Assembly: GCA_003551625.1 (NCBI GenBank) | Contig: PUNC01000243.1 | Span: forward strand, 1 to 60,741 | Direction: 5' to 3' | Length of the DNA stretch: 60,741 nucleotides | Source: PVC group bacterium | GTDB taxonomy: Bacteria; Auribacterota; Erginobacteria; Erginobacterales; PUNC01 | In this document: in pieces, positions 8,903 through 56,087 of the stretch | Layout: each line of letters begins with the position of its first letter | How positions within the stretch are numbered: position 1 is the stretch's first letter | Position numbers and translations under genes: made by a program | Notes under the pieces: model-generated | What the model saw: only the letters and a program-made list of their open reading frames with translations | Told to the model about the DNA's origin: nothing | Database searches by the model: none

Positions 8903-10324
8903 TTAATCCGCCGCCTCCACGACCTCGATCATCGCGGGATCGTCGATCACGATCTGAACCTGATCCCGGTGAGTGTCCACCATTCCGGTGACCCGGACGG
9001 TTTTATTGAGGTAGTTGGCCCGGAGGGAGCCGAAGGCTTCGGTGTCGAAAATCGCCACGGTCAGCCGATCCCGGGAGTCGCGGTAGAAGTTCAGGCGGGA
9101 GGGGGCTCTGGTTCGGCTGATATAAACGTCGACGATCTGGCCTTCAACAACCACCGTTTCTCCCACCCGGTCCATCGCTTCTTCCGGCGTCACCACCGGG
9201 AGCTCCACATCCAGAATCTCGATGTCTTCGGGGGAACGCAGCATAATCTGTTTCTGTCCCCGGTGCTCGTCCACCCGGCCCCGGACGCGGACCTTCTGGT
9301 TTAAAAACCGGCTGGGGTCGCCAAAGCCGCGGTCGGCGCCCTCCCGGGTCAGGGGGAAGAAGGCGATGGTAAGGCTTTCGCGAAAATCGCGGTGCGTGTT
9401 CAATCTCACCGGGCCGGTCTGGCCGCGGGCGGCCGGATCGTAGAGATTGACGATCCTGGCCTCGACCACGACCTCCTGTCCCAGGCGGTCCATCGCCTCC
9501 CGCCAGGTCAGCGGTTCCGAAGGGTCGGCCTCCACTTCCACCTCCGCCTCTTCCGTCTCGATGATCTCGATGTCGTCGGGCGAGTTCAGCATAATCTGCT
9601 TCCGGCCCTGATAGTCGGCGACCCGGCCGCGGACGCGGACCACCTGGTTCAGAAACCGGTTGGGATCGCCGAAACCGCGGTCGGCGCCCTCCCGGGTCCG
9701 GGGGAAGTAAACAAAGGAGAGGCTTTCCCGGAAATCGCGGTGCGTGTTCAGGCTGACCGGTCCCGTGCGGCCGCGGGCCTCCGGGTCGTGAACCCCGACA
9801 ATCCGGGCCTCGACGGTGACGGTCTGCCCGACCCGGTCCATCGCCTCCTGCCAGGTCAGCGGCTCCGACGGATCGGAAGGTTCTTCCGGTTCCGCGTCCG
9901 CTTCCTCGACGCGCGAAGGCAGGGCGCCGACGATCTCGATATCGCCGGGAGAGCGGAGCATAATCTGTCTCCGCCCCTGGTGATCGGCCACCCGGCCGCG
10001 GACGCGGACTACTTGGTCGCGGAAACGTTCCGGGTCTCCGAAACCCTGCTCGGCGCCCGAACGGTCGCGCTTGAAGAAGACAAACGAAAGACTGGTGCGG
10101 TGGTCGTCGTCGGTATTCAGGCTCACCGGCCCGCTCCGGCCGTGTTCCTCGGGGTCGTAAACGTCGACAATCATCGCCTCGACGGTGACGGTCTGCCCGA
10201 CCCGGTCCATCGCCTCCTGCCAGGTCAGAGCCTCGCTCGCGGAACCGGCGGGCGGAAAGGACAGCAACGCGAAAGACAGCAGGCCGGCAAAGACGGCTCC
10301 AGCGGTTCTTCCGATAACGCTCAT
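8903..10324 (-). CDS. Secreted protein with four tandem OB-fold-like repeats
   Basis: Signal peptide MSVIGRTAGAVFAGLLSFALLSFPPAGSASEA. Then 4 repeats of LTWQEAMDRVGQTVTVEA.IV....GPV.LN......L..V.F......FGDP.RF..Q.VRVRGRV....G..QIML.SP.DIEI. GGGAGG sits 7 nt before the ATG. Confidence 0.8.
   Translation of the reverse strand: MSVIGRTAGAVFAGLLSFALLSFPPAGSASEALTWQEAMDRVGQTVTVEAMIVDVYDPEEHGRSGPVSLNTDDDHRTSLSFVFFKRDRSGAEQGFGDPERFRDQVVRVRGRVADHQGRRQIMLRSPGDIEIVGALPSRVEEADAEPEEPSDPSEPLTWQEAMDRVGQTVTVEARIVGVHDPEARGRTGPVSLNTHRDFRESLSFVYFPRTREGADRGFGDPNRFLNQVVRVRGRVADYQGRKQIMLNSPDDIEIIETEEAEVEVEADPSEPLTWREAMDRLGQEVVVEARIVNLYDPAARGQTGPVRLNTHRDFRESLTIAFFPLTREGADRGFGDPSRFLNQKVRVRGRVDEHRGQKQIMLRSPEDIEILDVELPVVTPEEAMDRVGETVVVEGQIVDVYISRTRAPSRLNFYRDSRDRLTVAIFDTEAFGSLRANYLNKTVRVTGMVDTHRDQVQIVIDDPAMIEVVEAAD
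8906..10228 (-). repeat. Intragenic tandem repeats (about 369, 348, 318 and 288 nt units)
   Basis: Units at 9860-10228, 9512-9859, 9194-9511 and 8906-9193. Units 1-3 are highly similar at DNA level (for example the recurring ccatcgcctcc.gccaggtcag). Unit 4 is divergent. Confidence 0.85.
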
Positions 10325-10493: not shown

Positions 10494-11573
10494 TCACGTG
10501 TGCACCTTCACCGGGGCGACGTTGTCGGGGTAATCCCGGGCGATCAGGTAGTCGATCTCGGCCAGCGAGGACTTGAGCAATCTGACTTTGTCGTTGTAGG
10601 GGAGGAAGGCGCTCTTGAATCCATTGATCAGGATGTCCCGGAGGGCGATCAGGCTGAGGTTGAAGTGGCGGCAGGCGATATGGAGTTCCTTGCTCACGGT
10701 GGTATTGGATATCAGGCGGTTATCGGTGTTCAGGGTGACCCTGACCCCGTATTCGTAGTAATACTTGAAGGGGTGATCGCTCATTTTTTTGACCACTCCG
10801 GTCTGCAGGTTGCTGGAGAGGCATAGTTCCAGGGGGATCCGGTGGTCGGTGACATAGTTGAGGAGTTCCGCGTCCTCCCTCAGCCTCACCCCGTGGCCGA
10901 TCCGGTGGGCCCCGCAGTAATGCAGGGCCTGAGCGATGGAACCGGGCCCGAAAGCTTCCCCGGCGTGAACCGTGGAGTTGATATTCTGATTAATAATCAG
11001 GTTGAAGGCCCGGCGGTGATTTTTGGCCGGAAAATCCTTCTCGGCGCCGGCCAGGTCGAATCCCACCACTCCCCGCCGCTTGTAAGCCACCGCCAACTCG
11101 GCCAGCTGGTAGGAAAGACGGGGCGTGATGTGGCGGATACCGCAGAGGATCAATCCGGTTCTGATCCCGAAATCCCGCTCGGCTTTTTTCAGCCCGGCGT
11201 TCACGCTTTCCACCACTTCCGGCAGTTTCAGCTTCTCCTCCAGGTGCAGCAGGGGGGAGTAGCGAACCTCGACATACTTGACGTTCTCGGCGGCGCAGTC
11301 TTCGGCCAGCTCATACGCCGTCCTCATCAACGCTTCCCGCGTCTGCAGGACCGAAAGGGTGATCTCGAAATTCTTCAGGTATTCCACCAGGCTCCGGTAT
11401 TTCTTCCCCGGCTTGAGCAGCTTCTTGATCTCCGCGGAAGAATACCTCCTCTTCCCTTTCCGGGCGGGCAGGTCCCGGGCCAGTTCCAGGACCGTCTCCA
11501 TTCTCAACGATCCGTCCAGGTGGACGTGCAGGTCCACCTTGGGCAGCTTTTTGATGAATTCCAGGGTGATCAT
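10494..11573 (-). CDS. add: Adenosine deaminase
   Basis: LPKVDLHVHLDGSL, VKYVEVRYSP, HAGEAFG, LNTDNRLISNT. Confidence 0.92.
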   Translation of the reverse strand: MITLEFIKKLPKVDLHVHLDGSLRMETVLELARDLPARKGKRRYSSAEIKKLLKPGKKYRSLVEYLKNFEITLSVLQTREALMRTAYELAEDCAAENVKYVEVRYSPLLHLEEKLKLPEVVESVNAGLKKAERDFGIRTGLILCGIRHITPRLSYQLAELAVAYKRRGVVGFDLAGAEKDFPAKNHRRAFNLIINQNINSTVHAGEAFGPGSIAQALHYCGAHRIGHGVRLREDAELLNYVTDHRIPLELCLSSNLQTGVVKKMSDHPFKYYYEYGVRVTLNTDNRLISNTTVSKELHIACRHFNLSLIALRDILINGFKSAFLPYNDKVRLLKSSLAEIDYLIARDYPDNVAPVKVHT

Positions 11574-18649: not shown

Positions 18650-20794
<2,145 letters not shown>

Positions 20795-20803
20795 TCCGTA
20801 ATC

Positions 20804-20949: not shown

Positions 20950-21185
20950 TGGACTGACAGGTTTGGAAAATATATTAACTCTGGAGCCATAGAGAACACG
21001 TACTCTTACACGTACTCTTACACATACTCATTCAAACCGGGTTATTCCGACAGGATTGGAAAAGCGTGTATATCTTAGGAAGATTGGATATTTTTAACCC
21101 GCGGTGAAACTTTGCGGGTCGATATTCGCCGCTCCCCGAACCTTGAACCCGGAACCTTTGAACCCCGGCACTTATCAACTTTTTT
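20950..21185. repeat. Mosaic intergenic repeat island, copy 1
   Basis: Modules shared with 46.9-47.1, 54.4-54.76 and 55.9-56.09 kb: 12-nt units tcttacacRtac (20992-27), an identical 30-mer (21092-21121 = 54695-54724), and an identical 35-mer (21146-21180 = rc of 54541-54575). Confidence 0.85.
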
Positions 21186-44154: not shown

Positions 44155-44438
44155 AATAATAGCCCTACCCTTCTAAAAAGCGGAAGAGCAAGGCTTGCAC
44201 CCCGGCGGCACGGAACGGTTGAAACGCCCGGAAAGAAAACAGTTTAACCGCTATTCACCCCGTGCCGGTAACGGCGCAATCCCGGTTTGCGCCGGGGTGG
44301 AGATACGCATTTCGCTGATTGAACCTTAAGTAAACAGCTTAACAGCTGCGAAACGATCATCTACAAACCTTCTTGCCTTGCCTGTATCCGCTTGAACTTT
44401 AATCCCCTTCTTGCCGGGGAGCGGTTGTAAACGGGAGG
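44155..44438. repeat. AT-richer intergenic island with short stutters (weaker member)
   Basis: taaacagc/ttaacagc/tgcgaaac (44331-54). cttcttgcc is repeated at about 44369 and 44407. Hairpin ggcgcaa-N7-ttgcgcc (44273-93). Confidence 0.4.
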
Positions 44439-46841
44439 CTACTCGCGAAAACGGCAACCCAACTCGGCCGCCAGCGCTTCCTTGAAAGCCTCGTGTATTT
44501 CCGTCACCTTCTTGTCAACAAGTGTAGCACTCTCCGAACGGTACCGCAACTTAAAAGCCAGGCTTTTCTTTCCCGCCTCCAGGGGGCGGCCGCGGTAAAT
44601 ATCGAATAGGGCCCAGTCCTCCACCAGGGGGGGTTTGAGCTTTTCGATCGCCCGGGCTACCCGCGCGTAGGGCGTGGATTCATCAACGATGACGGCGATG
44701 TCCCTGCCCACCGCCGGATACTGCGGAAGGGGCCGGTAGGCGGTCGGGGAACGATCCGGGTCCGCCAGACCGTCCACGGCGATCTCGGCGATGAAGACGG
44801 GACGCGAGATGTCGAATTTGGTCCGGGCCGCCTCCGAGGCCTCTCCGGCCCAACCCCGCCGGCGACCGTCAACGATGATTTCGGCGGTCCGGCCGGCCTT
44901 GAACAAGGGATGCCGGGCGGGGCGAAACTCCGCCCCGGAAACCCCCAGGCGGCTGAAGAACTCCTCCAACAGTCCTTTCAGGCTGAAAAAGTCGGGTTGA
45001 GGGGAAGGCCGCCACCCTTCGGGTTCCCGCCCCGGACAGAGCGCCAGGGCCAAGCGGCTCTCTTCGTCCGGCGGCGAGGCGTCCCCGGCGGAAAGATAGA
45101 CCCGTCCAAGCTCAAAGATATCCATCCGATCGGCGCTCTGGTTCAGATTGTGATGGACGGCGCGCAGCAGTCCGGTCAGAAGAGTGGTCCGGAGCCAGCC
45201 GTTTTCCCGGTTCGGAGGATTGGCGATCTCGACCAGCCGCAGCAGGGGGTCGCCCGCCTCCAGACCCAATCCCTCAAGATCCCACCGATTCATAAAGCTG
45301 TAATTGACCGCCTCGTCGAGCCCGGAAGCGGCCGCGATCTCCCGGAACCGGGCGTCCCGCCGGTGCCGGCGCGGAAGGGGGCGGGGGGAAATCTTCACCC
45401 GGGGCGTGCTCGGCGCGAAGTTCTGGTAACCGTGAAGCCGGGCGATCTCCTCGGCCAGATCGGCCTCGCGGGTCAGGTCGGGCCGCCAGGAAGGAGCCCG
45501 GAAACTAAGGCTCGCTCCCCGGCCGCCGCTGAATTCCACCCCCAGGGGGGAAAGAAGCTTCCGGCAACGGTCGGGCTCGACTTCCATCCCCAGGAATTCG
45601 GAGAGGCGCCGGCAATTAACCCTGATCGTGACCGGGCGAAAACGGCGCTTCTTCTCGTCGATCCAGCCGGCGGCCGGTATTCCGGCCGAGAGGCCGGCGA
45701 TTATTCCCGCCGCGCGATGCAGGGATTCGGGAACGGCGGCGGGATCGACCGTTCTCTCGAAACGCCGGGAAGCCTCCGTGAACAGTCCCAGTTCGCGGGC
45801 CGAACGGCGCACCGTCACCGGATTGAAGAAAGCGCTTTCCAGTAAAACCTCGCGGGTGGCGTCGGAGACCTCGGTCTCGATCCCTCCCATAATGCCCGCC
45901 GCCGCGACCGGACGGGACTGATCGGCGATGACGAGCACTTCCGGAGAAAGAACGCGTTCCACCCCGTCGATGGTTACGATCTTTTCGCCCTTCCGGGCCC
46001 GCCGGACGATGATCTTCCCCCCGCGTAAAAGCCGAAAATCGAAAGCGTGCAGGGGCTGCCCGGTCTCGAGGAGGACGTAATTGGTCGCGTCCACGATATT
46101 GTTGATCGGCCGGATCCCGCAAAGGGCGAGACGGCGACGAATCGTAAAGGGCGAAGGCGCGACCTTCACCTCCCGGATCAGACGCGCGGTATAGTTGGGG
46201 CAGCGGGTGAAATCCTTCACCTCGACCGCGGCCTCGTTTCCGATCGGGCCGCCTTCGCGAAAAGGTTCCGAGGCGGGGGGATTGAAAGCGGTGTTGAAGA
46301 CGACCGCGGCCTCCCGCGCCACCCCGCGGACGCTGAGCAGGTCCGGGCGGTTGGGCGTGACGTTGACCTCGATAACGTAGTCCGGGAGCGCCAGCGCCGC
46401 CGCGACCGGGTCCCCGGACCGGGCGGCGGCGGGGAGGTCCACGATCCCGGCCGCGTCGTCACCCAGCCCCAGTTCTTGCTCGGAACAGAGCATTCCTTCC
46501 GACACCCTTCCGCCGATCTTACGGGGCTCGATCTTTCGCCCTCCGGGCAGGACCGTTCCCGGCAGGGCCAGGGCCGACTTCATCCCCACGACCACGTTGG
46601 GAGCGCCGCAGGCGACCGTGTGCTCCGTAGTCCCGGCCGAAACCCGGCACCAGTGAATTCGGGGACGGCCGGCGTCCCTTTCCCGGGCGACCACTTTCCC
46701 CACCAGCACCCCCGGAAGGCCGGCCTCGATCTTCTCCACCGACTCCACCTCCGCCCCCGCCATAGTCAACCGCTCGGCCAACTCCTCCGGGCCGGCCTCG
46801 AGATCGACCATTTCCTTCAGCCAGTTGTAGGTGACCTTCAT
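44439..46841 (-). CDS. pheT: Phenylalanine--tRNA ligase beta subunit
   Basis: MKVTYNWLKEMVDL.. N-terminus with tRNA-binding, B3/4, B5 and FDX-ACB domains. 800 aa. Confidence 0.92.
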   Translation of the reverse strand: MKVTYNWLKEMVDLEAGPEELAERLTMAGAEVESVEKIEAGLPGVLVGKVVARERDAGRPRIHWCRVSAGTTEHTVACGAPNVVVGMKSALALPGTVLPGGRKIEPRKIGGRVSEGMLCSEQELGLGDDAAGIVDLPAAARSGDPVAAALALPDYVIEVNVTPNRPDLLSVRGVAREAAVVFNTAFNPPASEPFREGGPIGNEAAVEVKDFTRCPNYTARLIREVKVAPSPFTIRRRLALCGIRPINNIVDATNYVLLETGQPLHAFDFRLLRGGKIIVRRARKGEKIVTIDGVERVLSPEVLVIADQSRPVAAAGIMGGIETEVSDATREVLLESAFFNPVTVRRSARELGLFTEASRRFERTVDPAAVPESLHRAAGIIAGLSAGIPAAGWIDEKKRRFRPVTIRVNCRRLSEFLGMEVEPDRCRKLLSPLGVEFSGGRGASLSFRAPSWRPDLTREADLAEEIARLHGYQNFAPSTPRVKISPRPLPRRHRRDARFREIAAASGLDEAVNYSFMNRWDLEGLGLEAGDPLLRLVEIANPPNRENGWLRTTLLTGLLRAVHHNLNQSADRMDIFELGRVYLSAGDASPPDEESRLALALCPGREPEGWRPSPQPDFFSLKGLLEEFFSRLGVSGAEFRPARHPLFKAGRTAEIIVDGRRRGWAGEASEAARTKFDISRPVFIAEIAVDGLADPDRSPTAYRPLPQYPAVGRDIAVIVDESTPYARVARAIEKLKPPLVEDWALFDIYRGRPLEAGKKSLAFKLRYRSESATLVDKKVTEIHEAFKEALAAELGCRFRE

Positions 46842-47125
46842 AAAGCTTTCGTAACCAACTCTTTCGTAGCGCAGCCCTTTAGGGCTGCCCCAGTGAGGCA
46901 GGGCTAAAGCCCTGCACTACGAACTGCGAATTAAGGATGCCCGGCAGGCCGAGTTGATAAGATAATAAGTTTATAAGTTGACAAGTGCCGGGGTTCAAAG
47001 GTTCCGGGTTCTCGGAATAATCCGGTTTGAATGAGTATGTGTAAGAGTATGTGTAAAAGTACGTGTAAGAGTACGTGTTCTATATGTCTCCAGAGTTAAT
47101 ATATTTTCCAAAACTTATTAAGCGT
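46842..47125. repeat. Mosaic intergenic repeat island, copy 2 (between pheS and pheT)
   Basis: Twin hairpins 46865-46921. gataagat/aataagtt/tataagtt/gacaagtg (46956-87). 35-mer core 46976-47010. aataatccggttt 47016-28. Four 12-nt units 47035-82. ctccagagttaatatattttccaaa about 47089-47113. Confidence 0.85.
46970..46998 (-). promoter_or_regulatory. Promoter-like site inside the repeat module (TTGAAC-17-TATAAA), facing pheT
   Basis: The minus strand reads TTGAACcccggcacttgtcaactTATAAA. The same arrangement occurs at 54535-54563. Confidence 0.4.
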
Positions 47126-48145
47126 TCAGAACTGCCGGAGAAAGCGCAGGTCGTTGTCGAAAAACAGCCGGATATCGTTGATTCCGTGGCGGAGCATGGC
47201 GATTCTCTCGATCCCCATCCCGAAAGCGTAGCCGGAATAGACGCGGTGATCGTAGCCGACGGCTTTGAAAACCTCGGGATCGACCATTCCCGCTCCCAAA
47301 ATCTCCAGCCAGCCGGACGAGCCGCAGACCCGGCAGCCCCGGCCGCCGCAGACCAGGCAGGAGATATCCACCTCCGCGCTGGGCTCGGTGAAGGGGAAGA
47401 AACTGGCCCGGAACCGGGTCTTGACCCGGGGGCCGAAACACCGGGTCGCGAAAAGGTTCAACACCCCTTTGAGATCGGTGAAGCTGACGCCGCGATCCAC
47501 CATCAAGCCTTCGATCTGGTGAAACATCGGGGAATGGGAGGCGTCGGCGGTGTCGGCCCGGTAGACCTTCCCGGCGCAGATCATACGGACCGGCGGCGGC
47601 TGTTTCTCCATCACCCGGACCTGAACCGGGGAGGTATGGGTCCGCAGCAGAAGGCCGTTTTTCAGGTAGAGGGTGTCCTGCATATCCCGGGCGGGGTGAT
47701 CGGCCGGAATATTGAGGGCGTCGAAGTTGTAGTATTCCGACTCGATCTCCGGGCCCTCTTCGAGGGTGAATCCCAGCGAGCTGAATATCTCGATGATCTC
47801 ATCCAGAACGCGGGTGAGCGGGTGGAGGCGGCCGATCCGGGGGCGGGTGCCGGGAAGGGTCACGTCGAAGCGGCCCTCCCCGACCGGGGAGTCCCCTTTC
47901 CGGGCGGCAAGCTCGGCCCGGCGGGAACGGAGCGCCTCCTCGACCGAACGTTTGGCCGCGTTGGCAAGACGACCCAGACGGGGACGGTCCTTTTCCGGCA
48001 GTCCGCCGAGACCCCGAACCAGGGCCGTAAGCCGGCCCTTCCGTCCCAGATACCGGATCTGAACCGATTCCAGTTCTTTCGTTTCCGAAGCGGATGAGAT
48101 TTCGCTCAACGCCCGGGAACGTAATTCTTCAAGCTGGCTTTCCAC
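47126..48145 (-). CDS. pheS: Phenylalanine--tRNA ligase alpha subunit
   Basis: HPLTRV..FDALNIPADHPARDMQDT..LRTHTSPVQ..FFPFTEPS..GMGIERIAM. Confidence 0.92.
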   Translation of the reverse strand: MESQLEELRSRALSEISSASETKELESVQIRYLGRKGRLTALVRGLGGLPEKDRPRLGRLANAAKRSVEEALRSRRAELAARKGDSPVGEGRFDVTLPGTRPRIGRLHPLTRVLDEIIEIFSSLGFTLEEGPEIESEYYNFDALNIPADHPARDMQDTLYLKNGLLLRTHTSPVQVRVMEKQPPPVRMICAGKVYRADTADASHSPMFHQIEGLMVDRGVSFTDLKGVLNLFATRCFGPRVKTRFRASFFPFTEPSAEVDISCLVCGGRGCRVCGSSGWLEILGAGMVDPEVFKAVGYDHRVYSGYAFGMGIERIAMLRHGINDIRLFFDNDLRFLRQF

Positions 48146-51077: not shown

Positions 51078-51100
51078 AAAAAAAAACCCGCGTAGGGTAA

Positions 51101-51174
51101 TGGGCGGTACTGGATTCGAACCAGCGACCTCTACGATGTCAACGTAGCGCTCTAACCAACTGAGCTAACCGCCC
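51101..51174 (-). tRNA. tRNA-Val (anticodon GAC)
   Basis: The minus strand reads GGGCGGTTAGCTCAGTTGGTTAGAGCGCTACGTTGACATCGTAGAGGTCGCTGGTTCGAATCCAGTACCGCCCA. Cloverleaf by eye, anticodon loop TTGACAT, no encoded CCA. Confidence 0.9.
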
Positions 51175-51194
51175 GGAAAGGGTAAGCCGGGATT

Positions 51195-51223
51195 AATATT
51201 CCCGTAATTCGAAGCGAAATCAA
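51195..51223 (-). promoter_or_regulatory. Candidate promoter for tRNA-Val/thrS operon (TTGATT-17-AATATT)
   Basis: The minus strand reads ggcTTGATTtcgcttcgaattacgggAATATTaatccc, 20 nt before the tRNA 5' end. Confidence 0.3.
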
Positions 51224-51226
51224 GCC

Positions 51227-51280
51227 AAAAAAATCCCCGGCCCGGCTCACTGCTCCCAACGGGGACGGAGCCGGGCCGGG
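51227..51280 (-). terminator. Rho-independent terminator after the Pro-rich small gene
   Basis: The minus strand has cccggcccggctc ... gagccgggccgggg (13-bp GC stem) followed by aTTTTTTT. Confidence 0.7.
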
Positions 51281-51301
51281 AAGAGCGGAAGTCAGGCGGA
51301 T

Positions 51302-51562
51302 TTAATGCGGCGGTTCTTTCTTTTCTTCCGGAGACCGCTGCTCGCCTCCTTCCGGAGGCTGCGATTTCTCTTCCGCCGGGGGAGGCGGCTGATCTTCCGC
51401 CGGGGGACGCGGCCTCTCTTCCGCCGGGGGACGCGGTCTCTCTTCCGCCGGGGGACGCGGCTCTTCGGGAGACGGTTTCGATGGTTTCTTGCCCGCGTTG
51501 GCAAGCATATAAACGACTATCACAGCCACCACGGCCACGATGAAAATCCAGATAACACCCAT
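51302..51562 (-). CDS. Small membrane-anchored protein with Pro/Glu-rich 8-aa repeats
   Basis: MGVIWIFIVAVVAVIVVYMLA TM helix, then (E/D)xPxPPAE x4-5. AAGGAGG 5 nt before the ATG, with its own promoter and terminator. Confidence 0.7.
   Translation of the reverse strand: MGVIWIFIVAVVAVIVVYMLANAGKKPSKPSPEEPRPPAEERPRPPAEERPRPPAEDQPPPPAEEKSQPPEGGEQRSPEEKKEPPH
51370..51465 (-). repeat. 4 x 24-nt in-frame tandem repeat
   Basis: cttccgccggggga(c/g)gcgg.. units begin at 51370, 51394, 51418 and 51442. Confidence 0.85.
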
Positions 51563-51621
51563 AATCGGCCTCCTTTCCCGAGAACCCGGTTAAAACCGGC
51601 AACCAATCGTTATGCTGATCT

Positions 51622-51650
51622 TTTATATCTTTTCCCCCATCAAAGGTCAA
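51622..51650 (-). promoter_or_regulatory. Candidate sigma70 promoter (TTGACC-17-TATAAA) for the Pro-rich small gene
   Basis: The minus strand reads aagacTTGACCtttgatgggggaaaagaTATAAAagatc. Confidence 0.45.
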
Positions 51651-51730
51651 GTCTTTATTTCCGGGGGAGCGGCCCTCCGAAAATCGGATAAACCGGAATA
51701 ATCAGGTTTAAACCGGCCGGGCTGAAATGC

Positions 51731-51760
51731 TTTACAACCCCTGAAAATGAAAGATATACT
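51731..51760 (+). promoter_or_regulatory. Candidate sigma70 promoter (TTTACA-18-TATACT) for the 51813 gene
   Basis: gcTTTACAacccctgaaaatgaaagaTATACTtttt. Confidence 0.45.
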
Positions 51761-51812
51761 TTTTCACCGGTCGAACTGGCCGGCGCAAATAAACTAAAAG
51801 GAGGATTTGAAG

Positions 51813-52200: not shown

Positions 52201-52698
52201 TTAGCCCCCAACGGTTCTTTTCTCCAGGGCAATCAGGTAAGACTTCCAGGCGGGACCGGCCGTAAACCCCCCGACGGAACCGTCGGCCCTGATCACCCGG
52301 TGACAGGGAATAAGGAGCGGCCAGGGGTTCATTCCCAGGGCGGTTCCCACCGCCCGCCCGGCCCGGGGGCGGCCTATCCTCCTTGCCAGCCGGCCGTATG
52401 ACTCGGTCGCCCCCCAGGGGATGGCAGCGGCCCGGAGCCATACCTGTTTGACAAATTCTCCGTAAGGCTCAAGATCGGGACGAAAATTCTCCAGGGAAAT
52501 AATCCGGGCCCAATCGCGGCCGGCGACTTCATCGACGGGGTATACCTCGGGAATCCGGGGAGGCAACCGCAATGACTCCGGTTTGCCGCCTTTCCAGATC
52601 ATCGTCAGCCTGCCGATGGGGGTATCCATCGGCTCCTCCCGCCGGCCGGAGTTGAAGCTCCCGGTTCCGAATCGGTTTTCCTCTCCCGTAATCTTCAT
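52201..52698 (-). CDS. ogt: Methylated-DNA--protein-cysteine methyltransferase
   Basis: IPWGATESYGRLA..GRAVGTALGMNPWPLLIPCHRVI (PCHRV active site). ATGA overlap with the ispH-fusion stop. Confidence 0.88.
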   Translation of the reverse strand: MKITGEENRFGTGSFNSGRREEPMDTPIGRLTMIWKGGKPESLRLPPRIPEVYPVDEVAGRDWARIISLENFRPDLEPYGEFVKQVWLRAAAIPWGATESYGRLARRIGRPRAGRAVGTALGMNPWPLLIPCHRVIRADGSVGGFTAGPAWKSYLIALEKRTVGG

Positions 52699-54392
52699 CT
52701 TCCGAAAAGAAAAGCGGCCAGGCCGGCAATCACGAACTGTCCGTCAATCAATGCCTGGAATACCGGCAGGGGATAAATCCGCCTTTGCTGGAACAGCTGT
52801 TGTAAGGCCAGGGCGTAGACGTAAGCGGCGGGGGCCAGCCAGAGCCCCAGGGTGGGAGCCGCCAACCCCCCCAGCAGCAGGATGACCCCCACCACGAAGG
52901 AGTTGAGAAGCAATACCGTGATCACCGCGTTCTTCGGCCCCATCGTCACCGGCAGCGTCCGCCAGCCCATAAAACGGTCTTTCTGGGCCATGGGAAGCGC
53001 CAACAGCGTGGAGCGGTTGAATACGATCAGGAAGATCAGCGCGAAGACGCCCCCGATCATCTTGAGAGACGCCGGCGGCGAGGCGATCGCGGGAATCAGG
53101 GCGGCGACACCGGCGATGGCGCCGGCTTTCACCGATTCCCTCACCGCGGGCAGGGCCAGCGGGCTGCCGGCCGGAAATGCCAGCGGCCGCCAGCGGCCGG
53201 CGGCCAGAATCGCCGCCGGCGGCAGAAGCGCCGCCGCCGCTCCCCACGCCGGCCGGCCGACCGCCGCCAGCGAAACGAAGACCCCCGCCGCCGACACCGC
53301 TCCCAGGACCGCCGGCAGCGGGATGCCCTTCCGCTCCACCGCCCCGCTTCCGGGCCGGGCGATGTCCGCCAGACGGCGTGCCGCGAAATACTCCACGGCC
53401 AGAAACATCCCGGCCAGGGCGGAAGCCGCCCGCGCTCCGGCCCCGAGCGTGACGGCGGCGGCGTAGGTAAGCGCCCCCATCCCCAGCCCGGGATATATTC
53501 CGCTTCCGGCCAGGAAACTCAGCAGCCGGTGAAACCAGCGGCCGAAGCGGCCGCCGCAGGAGGCGAAGAGACGGTTGACTACCTCCTGGATAACCCACTC
53601 CGGGGTCGAGGCGCCCCCGACGACGCCCACCGCCCGGAACCGCTTGAGTTTTTCCGGATCGAGTTCGGCGGCGCTCTCGACCGGAATAACCACCAGGCCG
53701 AGCGAGGCGGCCAGGCGGGCCAGACGAGCGGTGTTGGCGCTGTTTCTCCCCCCCACCACGACCATCGCCTCCACCTGGGCGGCCACCCTCTTCAGTTCAT
53801 CCTGGCGGGACGAGGTCGAGGGGCAGATGGTGTCAAAAACCACCAGGTCGCGGAACTTCGAACCGATCTTTCGGATTATATCTTCAAACTCCTCGCGATT
53901 CTGCGTCGTCTGGGAGACCAGGCAGACCTTCTCCATCGGGGGCAGATCCAGAGCTTCGGCCGCCGACGAGATAACGTGTCCCCTGCCCTCCGCGAACCCC
54001 AGCAAACCCTCGACCTCGCTATGTCCCCGGTCACCGAAGATCACGGTGGAGTACCCCCGGGCGGCGAATTTCTTGATCTTGGCCTGAACCTTTACGACAT
54101 CCGGGCAGCTGGCGTCAAAAATCCGGGCCCGGGTGGCTTTGAGTCTTTCCCTCACCCCGGGCGAGACGCCATGGGCGCTGATGAACCCGGACCCGGCGCC
54201 TTCAAAATCCGCCGGGTCCCGGCTCGCCCGGATGCCGCGGCTCTTGAGCAGTTCCACCACCTGGGGGTTGTGAATAATCGGGCCGTAGGTCATTATCCCG
54301 GAATCGGAACGCTTCTCCCGCTCGAGCACCGCCTCGAGCGCGCGCTCGACGCCCATACAGAACCCGGTATTTCGGGCGACCACAATCCTCAT
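52695..54392 (-). CDS. ispH: IspH (HMBPP reductase) fused to a C-terminal polytopic UbiA-like membrane domain
   Basis: Residues 1 to about 285 look like IspH: GFCMGVERA, HNPQVV, ASCPDV, TICPST, VVGGRNSANT. Residues about 286-565 carry 7-8 predicted TM helices with ARPGSGAV and KDRFMGWRTLPVTMG, which resemble UbiA-family loop motifs. Confidence 0.8.
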   Translation of the reverse strand: MRIVVARNTGFCMGVERALEAVLEREKRSDSGIMTYGPIIHNPQVVELLKSRGIRASRDPADFEGAGSGFISAHGVSPGVRERLKATRARIFDASCPDVVKVQAKIKKFAARGYSTVIFGDRGHSEVEGLLGFAEGRGHVISSAAEALDLPPMEKVCLVSQTTQNREEFEDIIRKIGSKFRDLVVFDTICPSTSSRQDELKRVAAQVEAMVVVGGRNSANTARLARLAASLGLVVIPVESAAELDPEKLKRFRAVGVVGGASTPEWVIQEVVNRLFASCGGRFGRWFHRLLSFLAGSGIYPGLGMGALTYAAAVTLGAGARAASALAGMFLAVEYFAARRLADIARPGSGAVERKGIPLPAVLGAVSAAGVFVSLAAVGRPAWGAAAALLPPAAILAAGRWRPLAFPAGSPLALPAVRESVKAGAIAGVAALIPAIASPPASLKMIGGVFALIFLIVFNRSTLLALPMAQKDRFMGWRTLPVTMGPKNAVITVLLLNSFVVGVILLLGGLAAPTLGLWLAPAAYVYALALQQLFQQRRIYPLPVFQALIDGQFVIAGLAAFLFGR

Positions 54393-54761
54393 CTCAAGCT
54401 TCCAGGTTCAGGGGTTCAAAAGTTATAAAGCAGATTCCAGATTCTAGATTTTGGATTTCAGTCAAGCCCGGTTCCGCCCATTTTTCATCTCGGGATAACA
54501 GAAGCCCAGCAGGCCAAGTCGATAAGATGATAAGTTTATAAGTTGATAAGTGCCGGGGTTCAAAGGTTCCGGGTTTGTTCAAAGTTATTACTCGGAGCAT
54601 AAAATAGTTTACTAAGGAGAGCATAAAATAGGTTGCACGTCATTGCGAGGAGCGAAGCGACGAAGCAATCTCATTGGACATTGCGAATTGGAAATTTTAA
54701 CCCGCGGTGAAACTTTGCGGGTCGGCATTCGCTTTTAACGCTATGCCCTATGCGCTATGCG
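54393..54761. repeat. Mosaic intergenic repeat island, copy 3
   Basis: cagattc x4 stutter (54431-58). gataag 8-nt stutter (54521-52). 35-mer (54541-75). gagcataaaata x2. cattgcgaggagcgaagcgacgaagcaatc (54641-70). 30-mer (54695-724). ctatgcS x3 (54741-61), which runs into the CDS stop. Confidence 0.85.
54535..54563 (-). promoter_or_regulatory. Promoter-like site inside the repeat module (TTGAAC-17-TATAAA), facing ispH-ogt
   Basis: The minus strand reads TTGAACcccggcacttatcaactTATAAA. Confidence 0.4.
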
Positions 54762-55863
54762 TTCTTTCAACGAATTCCCTGACCGCCCGGCAAACATACT
54801 CGATCTGCTCTTCGGTCAGCTCCGGAAAGATCGGCAGCGACAGAATCTCGGCGGCCAGCCTTTCGGCCACCGGGAAATCACCGGCCGAATAACCGAGGTC
54901 GCGGTAAGCCTTCTGAAGATGAACCGGGATCGGATAGTGTATGCCGCAACCGATCCCCCGGGCGCTCAAATCGGCCAGCAGTTCGTCCCGGCGGGTGGAG
55001 CGGATCACGAAGAGATGATAGACGTGGCGGTTGCCCGGCGTTTCGGAGGGCGGGATCACGCCGGCGGAGTCCAGAAGCTCACGGTAACGATCGGCGTGGC
55101 GACGGCGGGCGTCATTCCATCCTGAAAGACGGGGCAGCTTGACGCCGAGAACGGCGGCCTGCATTGTGTCCAGGCGGCTGTTCCATCCCACGATGTCGTG
55201 ATAATACTTGCGCGACTGCCCGTAGTTCCTGAACATCCGCGCCTGCCCGGCGACCTCTTCGTCGTCGGTGACGATGGCCCCCCCGTCCCCGTAGGCGCCC
55301 AGGTTCTTCCCCGGGTAGAAACTGAAGCATCCCGCCCTCCCCATCTTCCCGCAGCGGAGGCCCCGGTATTCGGCCCCGTGAGCCTGGGCGGCGTCTTCGA
55401 TCACGACCAGGTGATACTCTTCGGCGATCGCCGCGATCGCGTCCATATCGGCGGACTGGCCGTAAAGGTGAACCGGGATGACCGCCTTGGTCCGGGGGGT
55501 AACGGCTTTCCTTACCGCCGACGGATCGATCTGGAAAGAATCTTCCCGGCAATCCACCAGGACCGGCCGCGCGCCCGCGTAGCTGATCGCGAGTACCGTG
55601 GCGATGTAGGTGTTGGCCGCCGTGATCACCTCGTCGCCCGGACCGATCCCGCAGGCTTTCAACGCCCACAGGAGGGCGTCGCATCCACTTCCGACCCCCA
55701 CGCAGTATTTCGCGCCGCAGAATTCGGCGAAGGCCTCTTCAAACGCTTCCACTTCCTCCCCAAGTATGAACGCTCCTCGTTTCATAACACTCTCGACCGC
55801 CGGGATGATCTCCGAAGCGATATTCGCGTATTGCGTCTGCAGATCGACGAACGGTATCTTCAT
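54748..55863 (-). CDS. DegT/DnrJ/EryC1 family PLP aminotransferase (WbpE/WlbC-like)
   Basis: MKIPFVDLQTQYANI..GEEVEAFEEAFAEFCGAKYCVGVGSGCDAL.. Starts at the second ATG (55863), with AAGGAG 5 nt upstream. The 576-aa track ORF is an artefactual upstream extension. Confidence 0.88.
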   Translation of the reverse strand: MKIPFVDLQTQYANIASEIIPAVESVMKRGAFILGEEVEAFEEAFAEFCGAKYCVGVGSGCDALLWALKACGIGPGDEVITAANTYIATVLAISYAGARPVLVDCREDSFQIDPSAVRKAVTPRTKAVIPVHLYGQSADMDAIAAIAEEYHLVVIEDAAQAHGAEYRGLRCGKMGRAGCFSFYPGKNLGAYGDGGAIVTDDEEVAGQARMFRNYGQSRKYYHDIVGWNSRLDTMQAAVLGVKLPRLSGWNDARRRHADRYRELLDSAGVIPPSETPGNRHVYHLFVIRSTRRDELLADLSARGIGCGIHYPIPVHLQKAYRDLGYSAGDFPVAERLAAEILSLPIFPELTEEQIEYVCRAVREFVERTHSA

Positions 55864-55866
55864 CAT

Positions 55867-56087
55867 TTCTCCTTGGGCAGGCTTTTCATACTGCTTTCCT
55901 AAGATATCCCCGTTTTTCCAAACCTGTCGGAATAATCCGGTTTGAGTATGTGTAAGAGTACGTGTGAGAGTACGTGTAAGAGTATGGGATGGATAAGAGT
56001 TCACCTTCGACATTGGACATTGAGAATTGGGAGTTGGACATTCGCTTTTAACCCTGCGCGCTCTGCGCTTCGCGTCTTTTCCCCATC
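55867..56087. repeat. Mosaic intergenic repeat island, copy 4
   Basis: ttttccaaacctgtcggaataatccggtttga (55914-45). 12-nt units gtaYgtgtRaga (55946-93). cattgga 7-nt stutter x5 (56011-45). ctgcgcg/ctctgcg/cttcgcg (56054-74). Confidence 0.85.

Follow-up and report, generated by a model that had tools for sequence, protein, structure and literature searches.

Why do pheS and pheT, the genes for the two subunits of phenylalanine--tRNA ligase, stand 284 nucleotides (nt) apart in a bacterium of the PVC (Planctomycetes-Verrucomicrobia-Chlamydiae) group, and what fills the gap between them? We examined this spacer within a 60,741-nt stretch of contig PUNC01000243.1 (assembly GCA_003551625.1), the whole of which is called the window below. 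The original prediction, made from the DNA alone, took the spacer for one of four copies of a mosaic element inserted between the two genes and argued for a strand-specific function. In our analysis the spacer is probably a composite of dispersed intergenic repeats, namely a doublet of repetitive extragenic palindromes (REPs) of the hairpin-forming kind known as a REPIN plus genome-specific mosaic modules, with an incidental promoter-like site and structure. The genes and the spacer lie as follows.

47126-48145, minus strand: pheS, phenylalanine--tRNA ligase alpha subunit (NCBIfam TIGR00468, 9.5e-105), with its stop codon TGA at 47126-47128
46842-47125, minus strand: the pheS-pheT spacer, 284 nt, GC content 0.44 vs about 0.65 for the window
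44439-46841, minus strand: pheT, beta subunit (NCBIfam TIGR00472, 2.4e-213, profile positions 1-798), with its ATG at 46839-46841

The AT-richer gap had been described exactly. The pheT start codon at 46841 is correct, since the TIGR00472 match covers profile positions 1-798, and the spacer is not an assembly artefact, since the Logan assembly of SRR490150 (contig L082, 6.5 kb) matches the window with 100% identity, spacer included. The accompanying statement that pheS and pheT are normally adjacent is broadly correct: the median spacer is 29 nt in 64 distant loci with both genes and about 27 nt in most of a further 79, and it exceeds 200 nt in about one in fifteen of these 143 loci. Small open reading frames (ORFs) within the spacer were rejected as low-complexity sequences with TTG starts only, and no intrinsic terminator was found in it. 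What the spacer does contain is two unrelated kinds of repeat, a REP hairpin doublet and a set of genome-specific modules.

46863-46923, unstranded: GTAG-tagged REP head-to-head heterodimer (REPIN-like), recognised by its hairpins, its tags and its public-genome family

The twin hairpins of the original prediction are present as described; what it missed is that they form a GTAG-tagged REP doublet, an element separate from the other modules. Read on the plus strand, the doublet consists of GTAG (46866-46869), a hairpin (46871-46888), a 9-nt spacer, a second hairpin (46898-46915) and CTAC (46917-46920). The GTAG tag is thus found at both ends, CTAC on the plus strand being GTAG on the minus strand, and each tag lies 1 nt from its hairpin. 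Both hairpins have a 7-bp stem and a 4-nt loop, and the pair is a heterodimer, since two compensated base pairs distinguish one stem from the other. The arms of the doublet (46863-46892 and 46894-46923) are 80% complementary and can fold either into two small hairpins closed by a GTAG/CTAC helix or into one 25-bp interrupted hairpin, with a minimum free energy of -40.2 kcal/mol for the long hairpin; folding z-scores were -3.0 and -3.5. In Rfam 15 at the gathering threshold only two tRNAs were found in the window, with no T-box, leader, riboswitch or small RNA for the spacer, and relaxing the E-value to as much as 5 gave just spurious microRNA-precursor matches to the long hairpin.

The exact 18-mer hairpin GCAGGGCTTTAGCCCTGC is present in at least 119 public genome stretches, vs about 17 expected by our own estimate, when one genome per GTDB species is searched. 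The matches listed contain 131 hairpin instances, and the counts that follow hold among these matches. They come from Acidobacteriota, Desulfobacterota, Nitrospinota, Elusimicrobiota, WOR-3, Brocadiales, Actinomycetota and Candidatus (Ca.) Euphemobacter frigidus, and several genomes hold 2-5 exact copies. At the same upstream offset as in the window, 77 of the 131 instances carry GTAG and 18 carry GTGG (95/131, 73%). A second hairpin with a 7-bp stem and 4-nt loop follows within 35 nt in 50 of the 131, and nCTAC follows in 29 of those 50. Public loci of the family hold 26 head-to-head vs 3 tail-to-tail doublets, whose spacers have a median of about 10 nt (9 nt in the window). The stems also covary strongly: in 38 further family members, from which the searched 18-mer is left out, the free stem triplets are perfectly complementary in 32, with 11 triplet types (chance 1.6%). 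The degenerate family pattern, GTAG-N-GCAnnnC-WWWW-GnnnTGC, had no match in 170 unrelated loci. Ca. Euphemobacter frigidus has a doublet with this architecture (GTAGT, hairpin, 9 nt, hairpin, ACTAC) in the gap between two co-directional ORFs (locus L186, 1020-1074), and in the window the doublet is extragenic, flanked by the co-directional minus-strand genes pheS and pheT. As judged from these exact matches, one REP hairpin with its GTAG tag is common to genomes of many phyla.

The published definition of GTAG-tagged REPs and of head-to-head heterodimers (REPINs) matches the features of the doublet (Di Nocera et al. 2013, PMC3733652). The PVC superphylum is among the groups from which GTAG-tagged REPs are on record, and their mobilisation is attributed to REP-associated tyrosine transposases (RAYTs) (PMC3733652). 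The twin hairpins belong to the GTAG-REP/REPIN class, showing five of its seven defining features. Generic GT[AG]G-tagged hairpins are not enriched in the window (16 vs 10.2 +/- 3.1 in shuffles), and only the doublet fits the family. No protein family, such as a RAYT, was found to recur next to the REP matches among the 119 loci listed. The same REP hairpin is also found in another organisation, in head-to-tail tandem arrays with a 34-36-nt period and with GTTG rather than GTAG upstream, at about 29-118 of locus L176 and about 1027-1112 of locus L193 (Acidobacteria bacterium RIFCSPLOWO2_12_FULL_66_21), unlike the head-to-head doublets seen elsewhere.

The remainder of the spacer is built of modules that recur in the window, and the claim that the spacer is modular was borne out. 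Those in the pheS-pheT spacer are given in the order in which pheT is read.

47085-47118, minus strand: module M1, sense TTTGGAAAATATATTAACTCTGGAG, common with copy 1 at 20957-20989(+) (nhmmer 3e-08 and 1e-08, blastn)
47033-47078, minus strand: module M2, a 12-nt tandem array, sense ACACGTACTCTT, 3.8 copies by Tandem Repeats Finder (TRF)
47012-47032, minus strand: module M3, sense CATTCAAACCGGATTATTCCGA, in copies 1 and 4 too, containing the motif CCKGRTTATTY
46975-47011, minus strand: module M6, the 35-37-nt core (35-mer), sense GAACCCGGAACCTTTGAACCCCGGCACTTGTCAACTT, nhmmer about 5e-13 for all three copies
46939-46974, minus strand: module M7, an 8-nt array plus CTCGGCCTGCCGGGC (TRF array at 46952-46986, 4.4 copies)

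The four loci at which modules occur are the following.

20957-21181, plus strand: copy 1, M1-M2-M3-M4-M5-M6, ending 18 nt before the ATG (21200) of a DUF1015 gene
46842-47125, minus strand: copy 2, M1-M3 + M6 + M7 + hairpins, the pheS-pheT spacer
54504-54732, minus strand: copy 3, M6-M7 (54504-54575) + M5 (54695-54732, inverted relative to copy 1), upstream of ispH/lytB (52695-54392)
55896-55984, minus strand: copy 4, M2-M3-M4, upstream of a DegT-family aminotransferase gene (54748-55866)

The genome-specific modules that this spacer has in common with three other spacers of the window are 89-97% identical and stand in the same order. In the sense of the downstream gene that order is M1, M2, M3, M4, M5, M6, M7 and then the hairpins, with a different subset at each locus. 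Pairwise E-values among the AT-rich spacers range from 1e-14 to 3e-28 (blastn-short), so the sharing is not due to chance. The 35-mer of M6 is 97% identical to 21145-21181(+) in reverse complement and has a further match at 54540-54575(-), and M6 and M7 together form a 72-nt block that is 93% identical to copy 3 (54504-54575). The head of M1 resembles module M4 of copies 1 and 4, the common head being GACAGGTTTGGAAAA. None of M1-M7 contains a GTAG-tagged palindrome, and arrays with short periods of 7, 8 and 12 nt abound in them. A profile search with nhmmer detected no weaker module copies in the 60.7-kb window beyond the four loci. Exact searches for the 35-mer core in public genome and metagenome contigs, and for the M5 hairpin in public genome contigs, gave no match, which suggests that the modules are genome- or lineage-specific.

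All the parts listed in the original prediction are present where it put them, including the 8-nt stutter (46952-46986) and the 35-nt core (46975-47011); its short element between the core and the 12-nt units is aataatccggttt at 47016-47028, and its end module is ctccagagttaatatattttccaaa at 47088-47112, which matches 20962-20986 in reverse complement. The 12-nt units had been counted as four, three and two in copies 2, 4 and 1, which is close, but equal counting gives about 4, 3.4 and 3 (by TRF, 3.8 in copy 2, 3.4 in copy 4 at 55944-55984 and 2.8 in copy 1 at 20996-21029). A reading of the 8-nt array as DnaA boxes or a site for integration host factor was dropped, as the matches are partial, there is no GC-skew inflection and the array recurs elsewhere. 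The motif CCKGRTTATTY of M3 occurs at 2504-2514, 21037-21047, 47015-47025, 51696-51706, 52497-52507 and 55930-55940 (6 vs 0.2 expected), always co-oriented with the local gene and once directly before a start codon (gene 2087-2503); the statistic is inflated, because the pattern was picked after the matches had been seen.

That the mosaic had been inserted between pheS and pheT is not established by comparison with relatives. The nearest PheS that we found is 77% identical and lies on a 1-kb contig (L083) in which 85 nt after the stop codon are visible; this stretch contains no module and no REP, and has an 18-of-22 match to CCTGCCGGGCATCCTTAATTCG (z about 4). A metagenome scan with the PheT N-terminus returned nothing closer than 48%. 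After it come relatives whose PheS is about 65% identical, among them a 'PVC group bacterium' and Ca. Euphemobacter frigidus (Auribacterota), in which the whole thrS-to-dxs synteny is kept; their pheS-pheT spacers measure 264, 214, 136, 72 and 2 nt (the last in L168) and have no significant similarity to the window spacer. Two of these relatives, L084 and L085, align over the pheT-rarA spacer with z = 67 and over the pheS-pheT spacer with z = 2. Since syntenic genomes range from 2 to 284 nt at this position and L084 and L085 barely agree there, the pheS-pheT spacer is fast-evolving and length-variable in the clade, a variable site rather than a tight junction recently hit. The original prediction had proposed the comparison of pheST intergenic regions in related genomes; no relative carries the same spacer, but the relatives are deep (PheS at most 77% identical), so none of them provides a true empty site. 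A variable spacer fits the accumulation and turnover of repeats, judging from these alignments, and a discrete recent insertion is not demonstrated.

The junction of M6 and M7 also bears a promoter-like match.

46970-46998, minus strand: sigma-70-like promoter match facing pheT, with -35 TTGAAC at 46993-46998, N17 and -10 TATAAA at 46970-46975

This match lies about 130 nt upstream of pheT, which implies a 5' leader of about 120 nt. The looser pattern TTGA-N18-20-TATAA occurs three times in the window vs 0.09 expected from whole-window shuffles and 0.064 from shuffles restricted to the 3.1 kb of intergenic DNA (probability of at least two, 0.0015). All three sites are in spacers and point at the downstream gene: one in copy 2 facing pheT, one in copy 3 facing ispH and one at 51623-51650, upstream of a small ORF that heads the tRNA-Val/thrS region. 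The proposal of a promoter in the element therefore has some support in TTGAAC-N17-TATAAA, but this is a consensus match only. The absence of an obvious Shine-Dalgarno (SD) sequence before pheT was also confirmed, the best pairing with the anti-SD being weak (-4.6 kcal/mol). Such weakness is not unusual here, since the median for 47 window genes is -5.7 kcal/mol and only 22 of the 47 reach -6 or lower.

The third of these sites, TTGACC-N17-TATAAA at 51623-51650(-), precedes a small proline-rich ORF with four 24-nt coding tandem repeats (51367-51461). That ORF is followed at about 51230-51290 by a strong hairpin that has a T run, and after this by tRNA-Val (51101-51174) and thrS; the minus-strand genes around the spacer run tRNA-Val, thrS, infC, rpmI, rplT, pheS, pheT and a rarA-like gene. 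From this arrangement, the region 51078-51806 is probably the promoter region of the operon containing pheS.

Taken as a composite of dispersed repeats, the spacer may have arisen by two routes. If it behaves like characterised REPs, the REP doublet would owe its spread to a RAYT (TnpA_REP) transposase acting in trans; REP doublets mobilised in this way are reportedly the subject of Nunvar et al. 2010 (PMC2817692) and Bertels & Rainey 2011 (PMC3116915). Duplication, recombination and replication slippage would have copied M1-M7 and the 8- and 12-nt arrays from one AT-rich spacer to another, so that colinear mosaics with differing subsets and unit numbers arose; the colinearity of the modules among four spacers and the variable number of 12-nt units (2.8, 3.8 and 3.4) argue for such copying. 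The element would then be mainly selfish or neutral repeat DNA building up in a spacer that the lineage tolerates as variable. Some consequences for pheT could follow. The M6/M7 junction may offer a sigma-70-type promoter, and on the transcript the doublet is predicted to fold into a stable structure of about -40 kcal/mol whose end lies 24 nt before the pheT AUG; as with REPs in other operons, this structure might shield upstream mRNA from 3' exonucleases or act as a processing site. As a result, pheT expression would be uncoupled from that of pheS.

Several observations weigh against this reading or parts of it. The 60.7-kb window contains only the one REP doublet, so a high genome copy number is not supported there, and no RAYT domain (Y1 HUH transposase, PF01797) was reported among the window genes scanned, which is uninformative since RAYTs are single-copy. 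A stricter sigma-70 scan does not report the M6/M7 site, because its -10 hexamer ends in A instead of the canonical final T. M6 is not always a promoter, since in copy 1 it has no good -10 and lies only 18 nt from the SD and ATG, and an internal pheT promoter is not a feature of the clade, since promoter scans of the relatives' spacers gave no match above chance. Conserved module order and sense orientation, moreover, could reflect function, not history.

This last point leads to the view closest to the original prediction, that M1-M7 are a selected, strand-specific regulatory cassette, with portable promoter or 5'-leader modules or sites for a regulator or RNA-binding protein that are kept by their function. 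We regard it as possible but doubtful. Relative to the downstream gene, module orientation is the same in copies 1 and 2 as had been stated, and indeed every copy of M1, M2-M3, M4, M6 and M7 is in the sense direction. TTGAAC-N17-TATAAA is intact in both M6/M7 copies, with all six substitutions between them outside the hexamers, the six CCKGRTTATTY motifs share the orientation of their local genes, and the intergenic heptamer arrays of Beggiatoaceae (TAACTGA repeats) have been proposed as regulator sites (PMC4679880). However, the orientation rests on about three independent events, with a chance of about 1 in 8 (p about 0.125), and copies 2-4 are clustered within 9 kb, in a run of minus-strand genes; M5 is found in either orientation. 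The genes downstream (DUF1015, pheT, ispH and DegT) have no common functional theme, the distance from M6 to the start codon varies from 18 to about 148 nt, and with no exact public match for the modules and unrelated spacers in relatives any function would have to be very young. The step from orientation to strand-specific function is therefore not established, and the argument, drawn from module alignments, is suggestive only.

The other alternatives fare less well. M1-M7, or a sub-block of it, could be a non-autonomous transposon like a MITE (a miniature transposable element with inverted repeats) that entered a short pheS-pheT junction, such as the 2-nt junction of the syntenic L168. This is unlikely. 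Module boundaries are sharp, with M3 abutting M6 in copy 2 and about 95 nt away from it in copy 1, and a 10-nt perfect inverted repeat (46963-46972, 47111-47120) brackets M1-M6; this repeat, though, is specific to copy 2 and within chance for AT-rich DNA (about 0.2 expected by our own estimate), the copies are differing subsets and not one unit with common terminal inverted repeats, no target-site duplications or flanking direct repeats were seen, the window holds no transposase, and other relatives are already at a spacer of 136-264 nt. That same length in relatives at about 65% PheS identity, the 18-of-22 match to CCTGCCGGGCATCCTTAATTCG in the closest relative and a hairpin just upstream of the pheT ATG in relatives would all suit an ancestral pheT leader or regulatory RNA of the lineage that only looks modular. 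Such a leader is very improbable, as the spacer has no significant similarity to that of any relative and no Rfam family, L084 and L085 keep the pheT-rarA spacer and barely the pheS-pheT spacer, and most of the window spacer is common to unrelated loci in the same genome. Finally, a chimeric path is conceivable where a de Bruijn assembler meets repeats of 36-72 nt, but two independent assemblies agree completely over 6.5 kb, the flanks show the expected pheS-pheT synteny and exact stretches shared between aligned copies are mostly shorter than 31 nt, which makes an assembly artefact close to negligible.

Other repeat and non-coding features were observed in the relatives and elsewhere in the window. 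The pheT-rarA spacer of the relatives is strongly conserved non-coding DNA: L084 13685-13992 and L085 13635-13940 align with each other, and also with L170 13563-13880 and part of L168 13102-13687. It ends in an intrinsic terminator (GCCTTGCCC...GGGCAAGG, then a T run) and has no Rfam match; the window counterpart (44155-44438, 284 nt) aligns weakly with those of the relatives. From its conservation, this unannotated element is a candidate small RNA or long structured 3' untranslated region. A hairpin, (A)AGTTGC...GCTAAnTT, lies immediately upstream of several start codons in the relatives (pheT, thrS and others), at about 11255-11281 and 6255-6279 of L084, about 11205-11234 of L085, about 11120-11150 of L170 and 1078-1100 of L186, and is the sole part of the pheS-pheT spacer common to L084 and L085. 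Given these positions, the hairpin is possibly specific to the lineage and part of its translation-initiation regions.

AT-rich tandem arrays of 7-10 nt are also present in the operon spacers of the relatives, mostly as inverted pairs that give hairpins with tandem-repeat arms of up to 13.6 units.

L084 9808-9901, 11028-11115, 15924-16001, 17713-17803 and 18650-18736: tandem arrays
L166 2047-2118: tandem array
L168 17370-17570 and 18371-18538: tandem arrays
L170 about 11050-11112: tandem array

Arrays occur at 2-4.8 per 10 kb in three relatives vs 0.79 in 80 unrelated loci; the window has 1.65, mostly without an inverted partner. Heptamer arrays lie over stop codons in the window, where (GTAATCA)x2.9 at 20784-20803 spans the stop (20792-20794) of an alpha-amylase-like gene and (CGCTATG)x3.3 at 54739-54761 spans the DegT stop (54748-54750); three 7-nt units that each carry a stop triplet close all three reading frames. 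The GTAATCA heptamer is found again in L084 at 18650-18681, after ymdB, a non-orthologous site. Separately, the ORF at 8903-10324 of the window appears to encode an internally repeated protein of nucleic-acid-binding type, as three or four repeats of about 348 nt lie within it (9131-10216, 65-79% identical), together with weak OB-fold matches.

The spacer documents REP/REPIN-type elements together with a mosaic of short repeats resembling bacterial interspersed mosaic elements (BIMEs), and does so for an uncultured, high-GC lineage of the PVC group whose nearest named relative is Ca. Euphemobacter frigidus (Auribacterota). A REP hairpin that is shared across phyla with its GTAG tag is useful for the annotation of metagenome-assembled genomes and for the study of RAYT-REP co-evolution. 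In local terms, pheT may be transcribed from a promoter of its own and preceded by a structured leader, and so need not depend on translational coupling to pheS. A bolder proposal, which we consider improbable, is that the window and its Auribacterota-like relatives share a lineage-wide, rapid generation and turnover of AT-rich 7-12-nt arrays between operon genes, in which blocks of the M6/M7 type have turned into portable promoter/leader cassettes that divide ancestral operons such as pheST into separate units. This would be a repeat-driven rewiring of operons not described for this group. The general understanding of intergenic repeats is unchanged by our findings on this spacer.

Among known systems, the region 46863-46923 resembles GTAG-REPs and REPINs in its terminal GTAG tag, its GC-rich 7-bp stems with 4-nt loops, its inverted head-to-head pairing across a short spacer, its compensated heterodimer, its extragenic position between co-directional genes and its relatives in many genomes with several copies each. 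It differs in that only this part of the spacer is REP, M1-M7 having no GTAG-tagged palindrome. The spacer as a whole is similar to the BIMEs of E. coli and Salmonella, which are likewise mosaics of REP palindromes and short conserved motifs in transcribed spacers, including those inside operons, with an arrangement that varies by copy. However, there is no sequence relationship: E. coli BIMEs are built of alternating Y and Z palindromic units with the motifs A, B, L, S, l, r and s, whereas here there is one doublet with a 9-nt spacing, only one of four mosaic copies has REPs, and nothing in BIMEs corresponds to the 8- and 12-nt arrays. The remaining modules have unrelated sequences and are present without REPs in copies 1, 3 and 4, so the likeness is architectural only. 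BOX elements of Streptococcus pneumoniae have the structure boxA-boxB(n)-boxC, with a central tandem unit in variable number, and often lie in transcribed regions. The modules share with them the form of modular intergenic repeats with a variable number of central tandem units, but those units are 12 nt here vs about 45 nt in BOX, there are more modules, no fixed A...C bounds and no sequence similarity. With the short tandemly repeated repetitive (STRR) sequences and small dispersed repeats of cyanobacteria, and with the TAACTGA repeats of Beggiatoaceae, the spacer has in common AT-rich direct repeats of 7-12 nt that are confined to intergenic DNA and often lie near start or stop codons, although unit sequences and periods differ and the arrays here are embedded in larger common modules. 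The whole spacer thus works like a BIME without being one of the E. coli type, and its arrays resemble repeats of the BOX, STRR and TAACTGA types.

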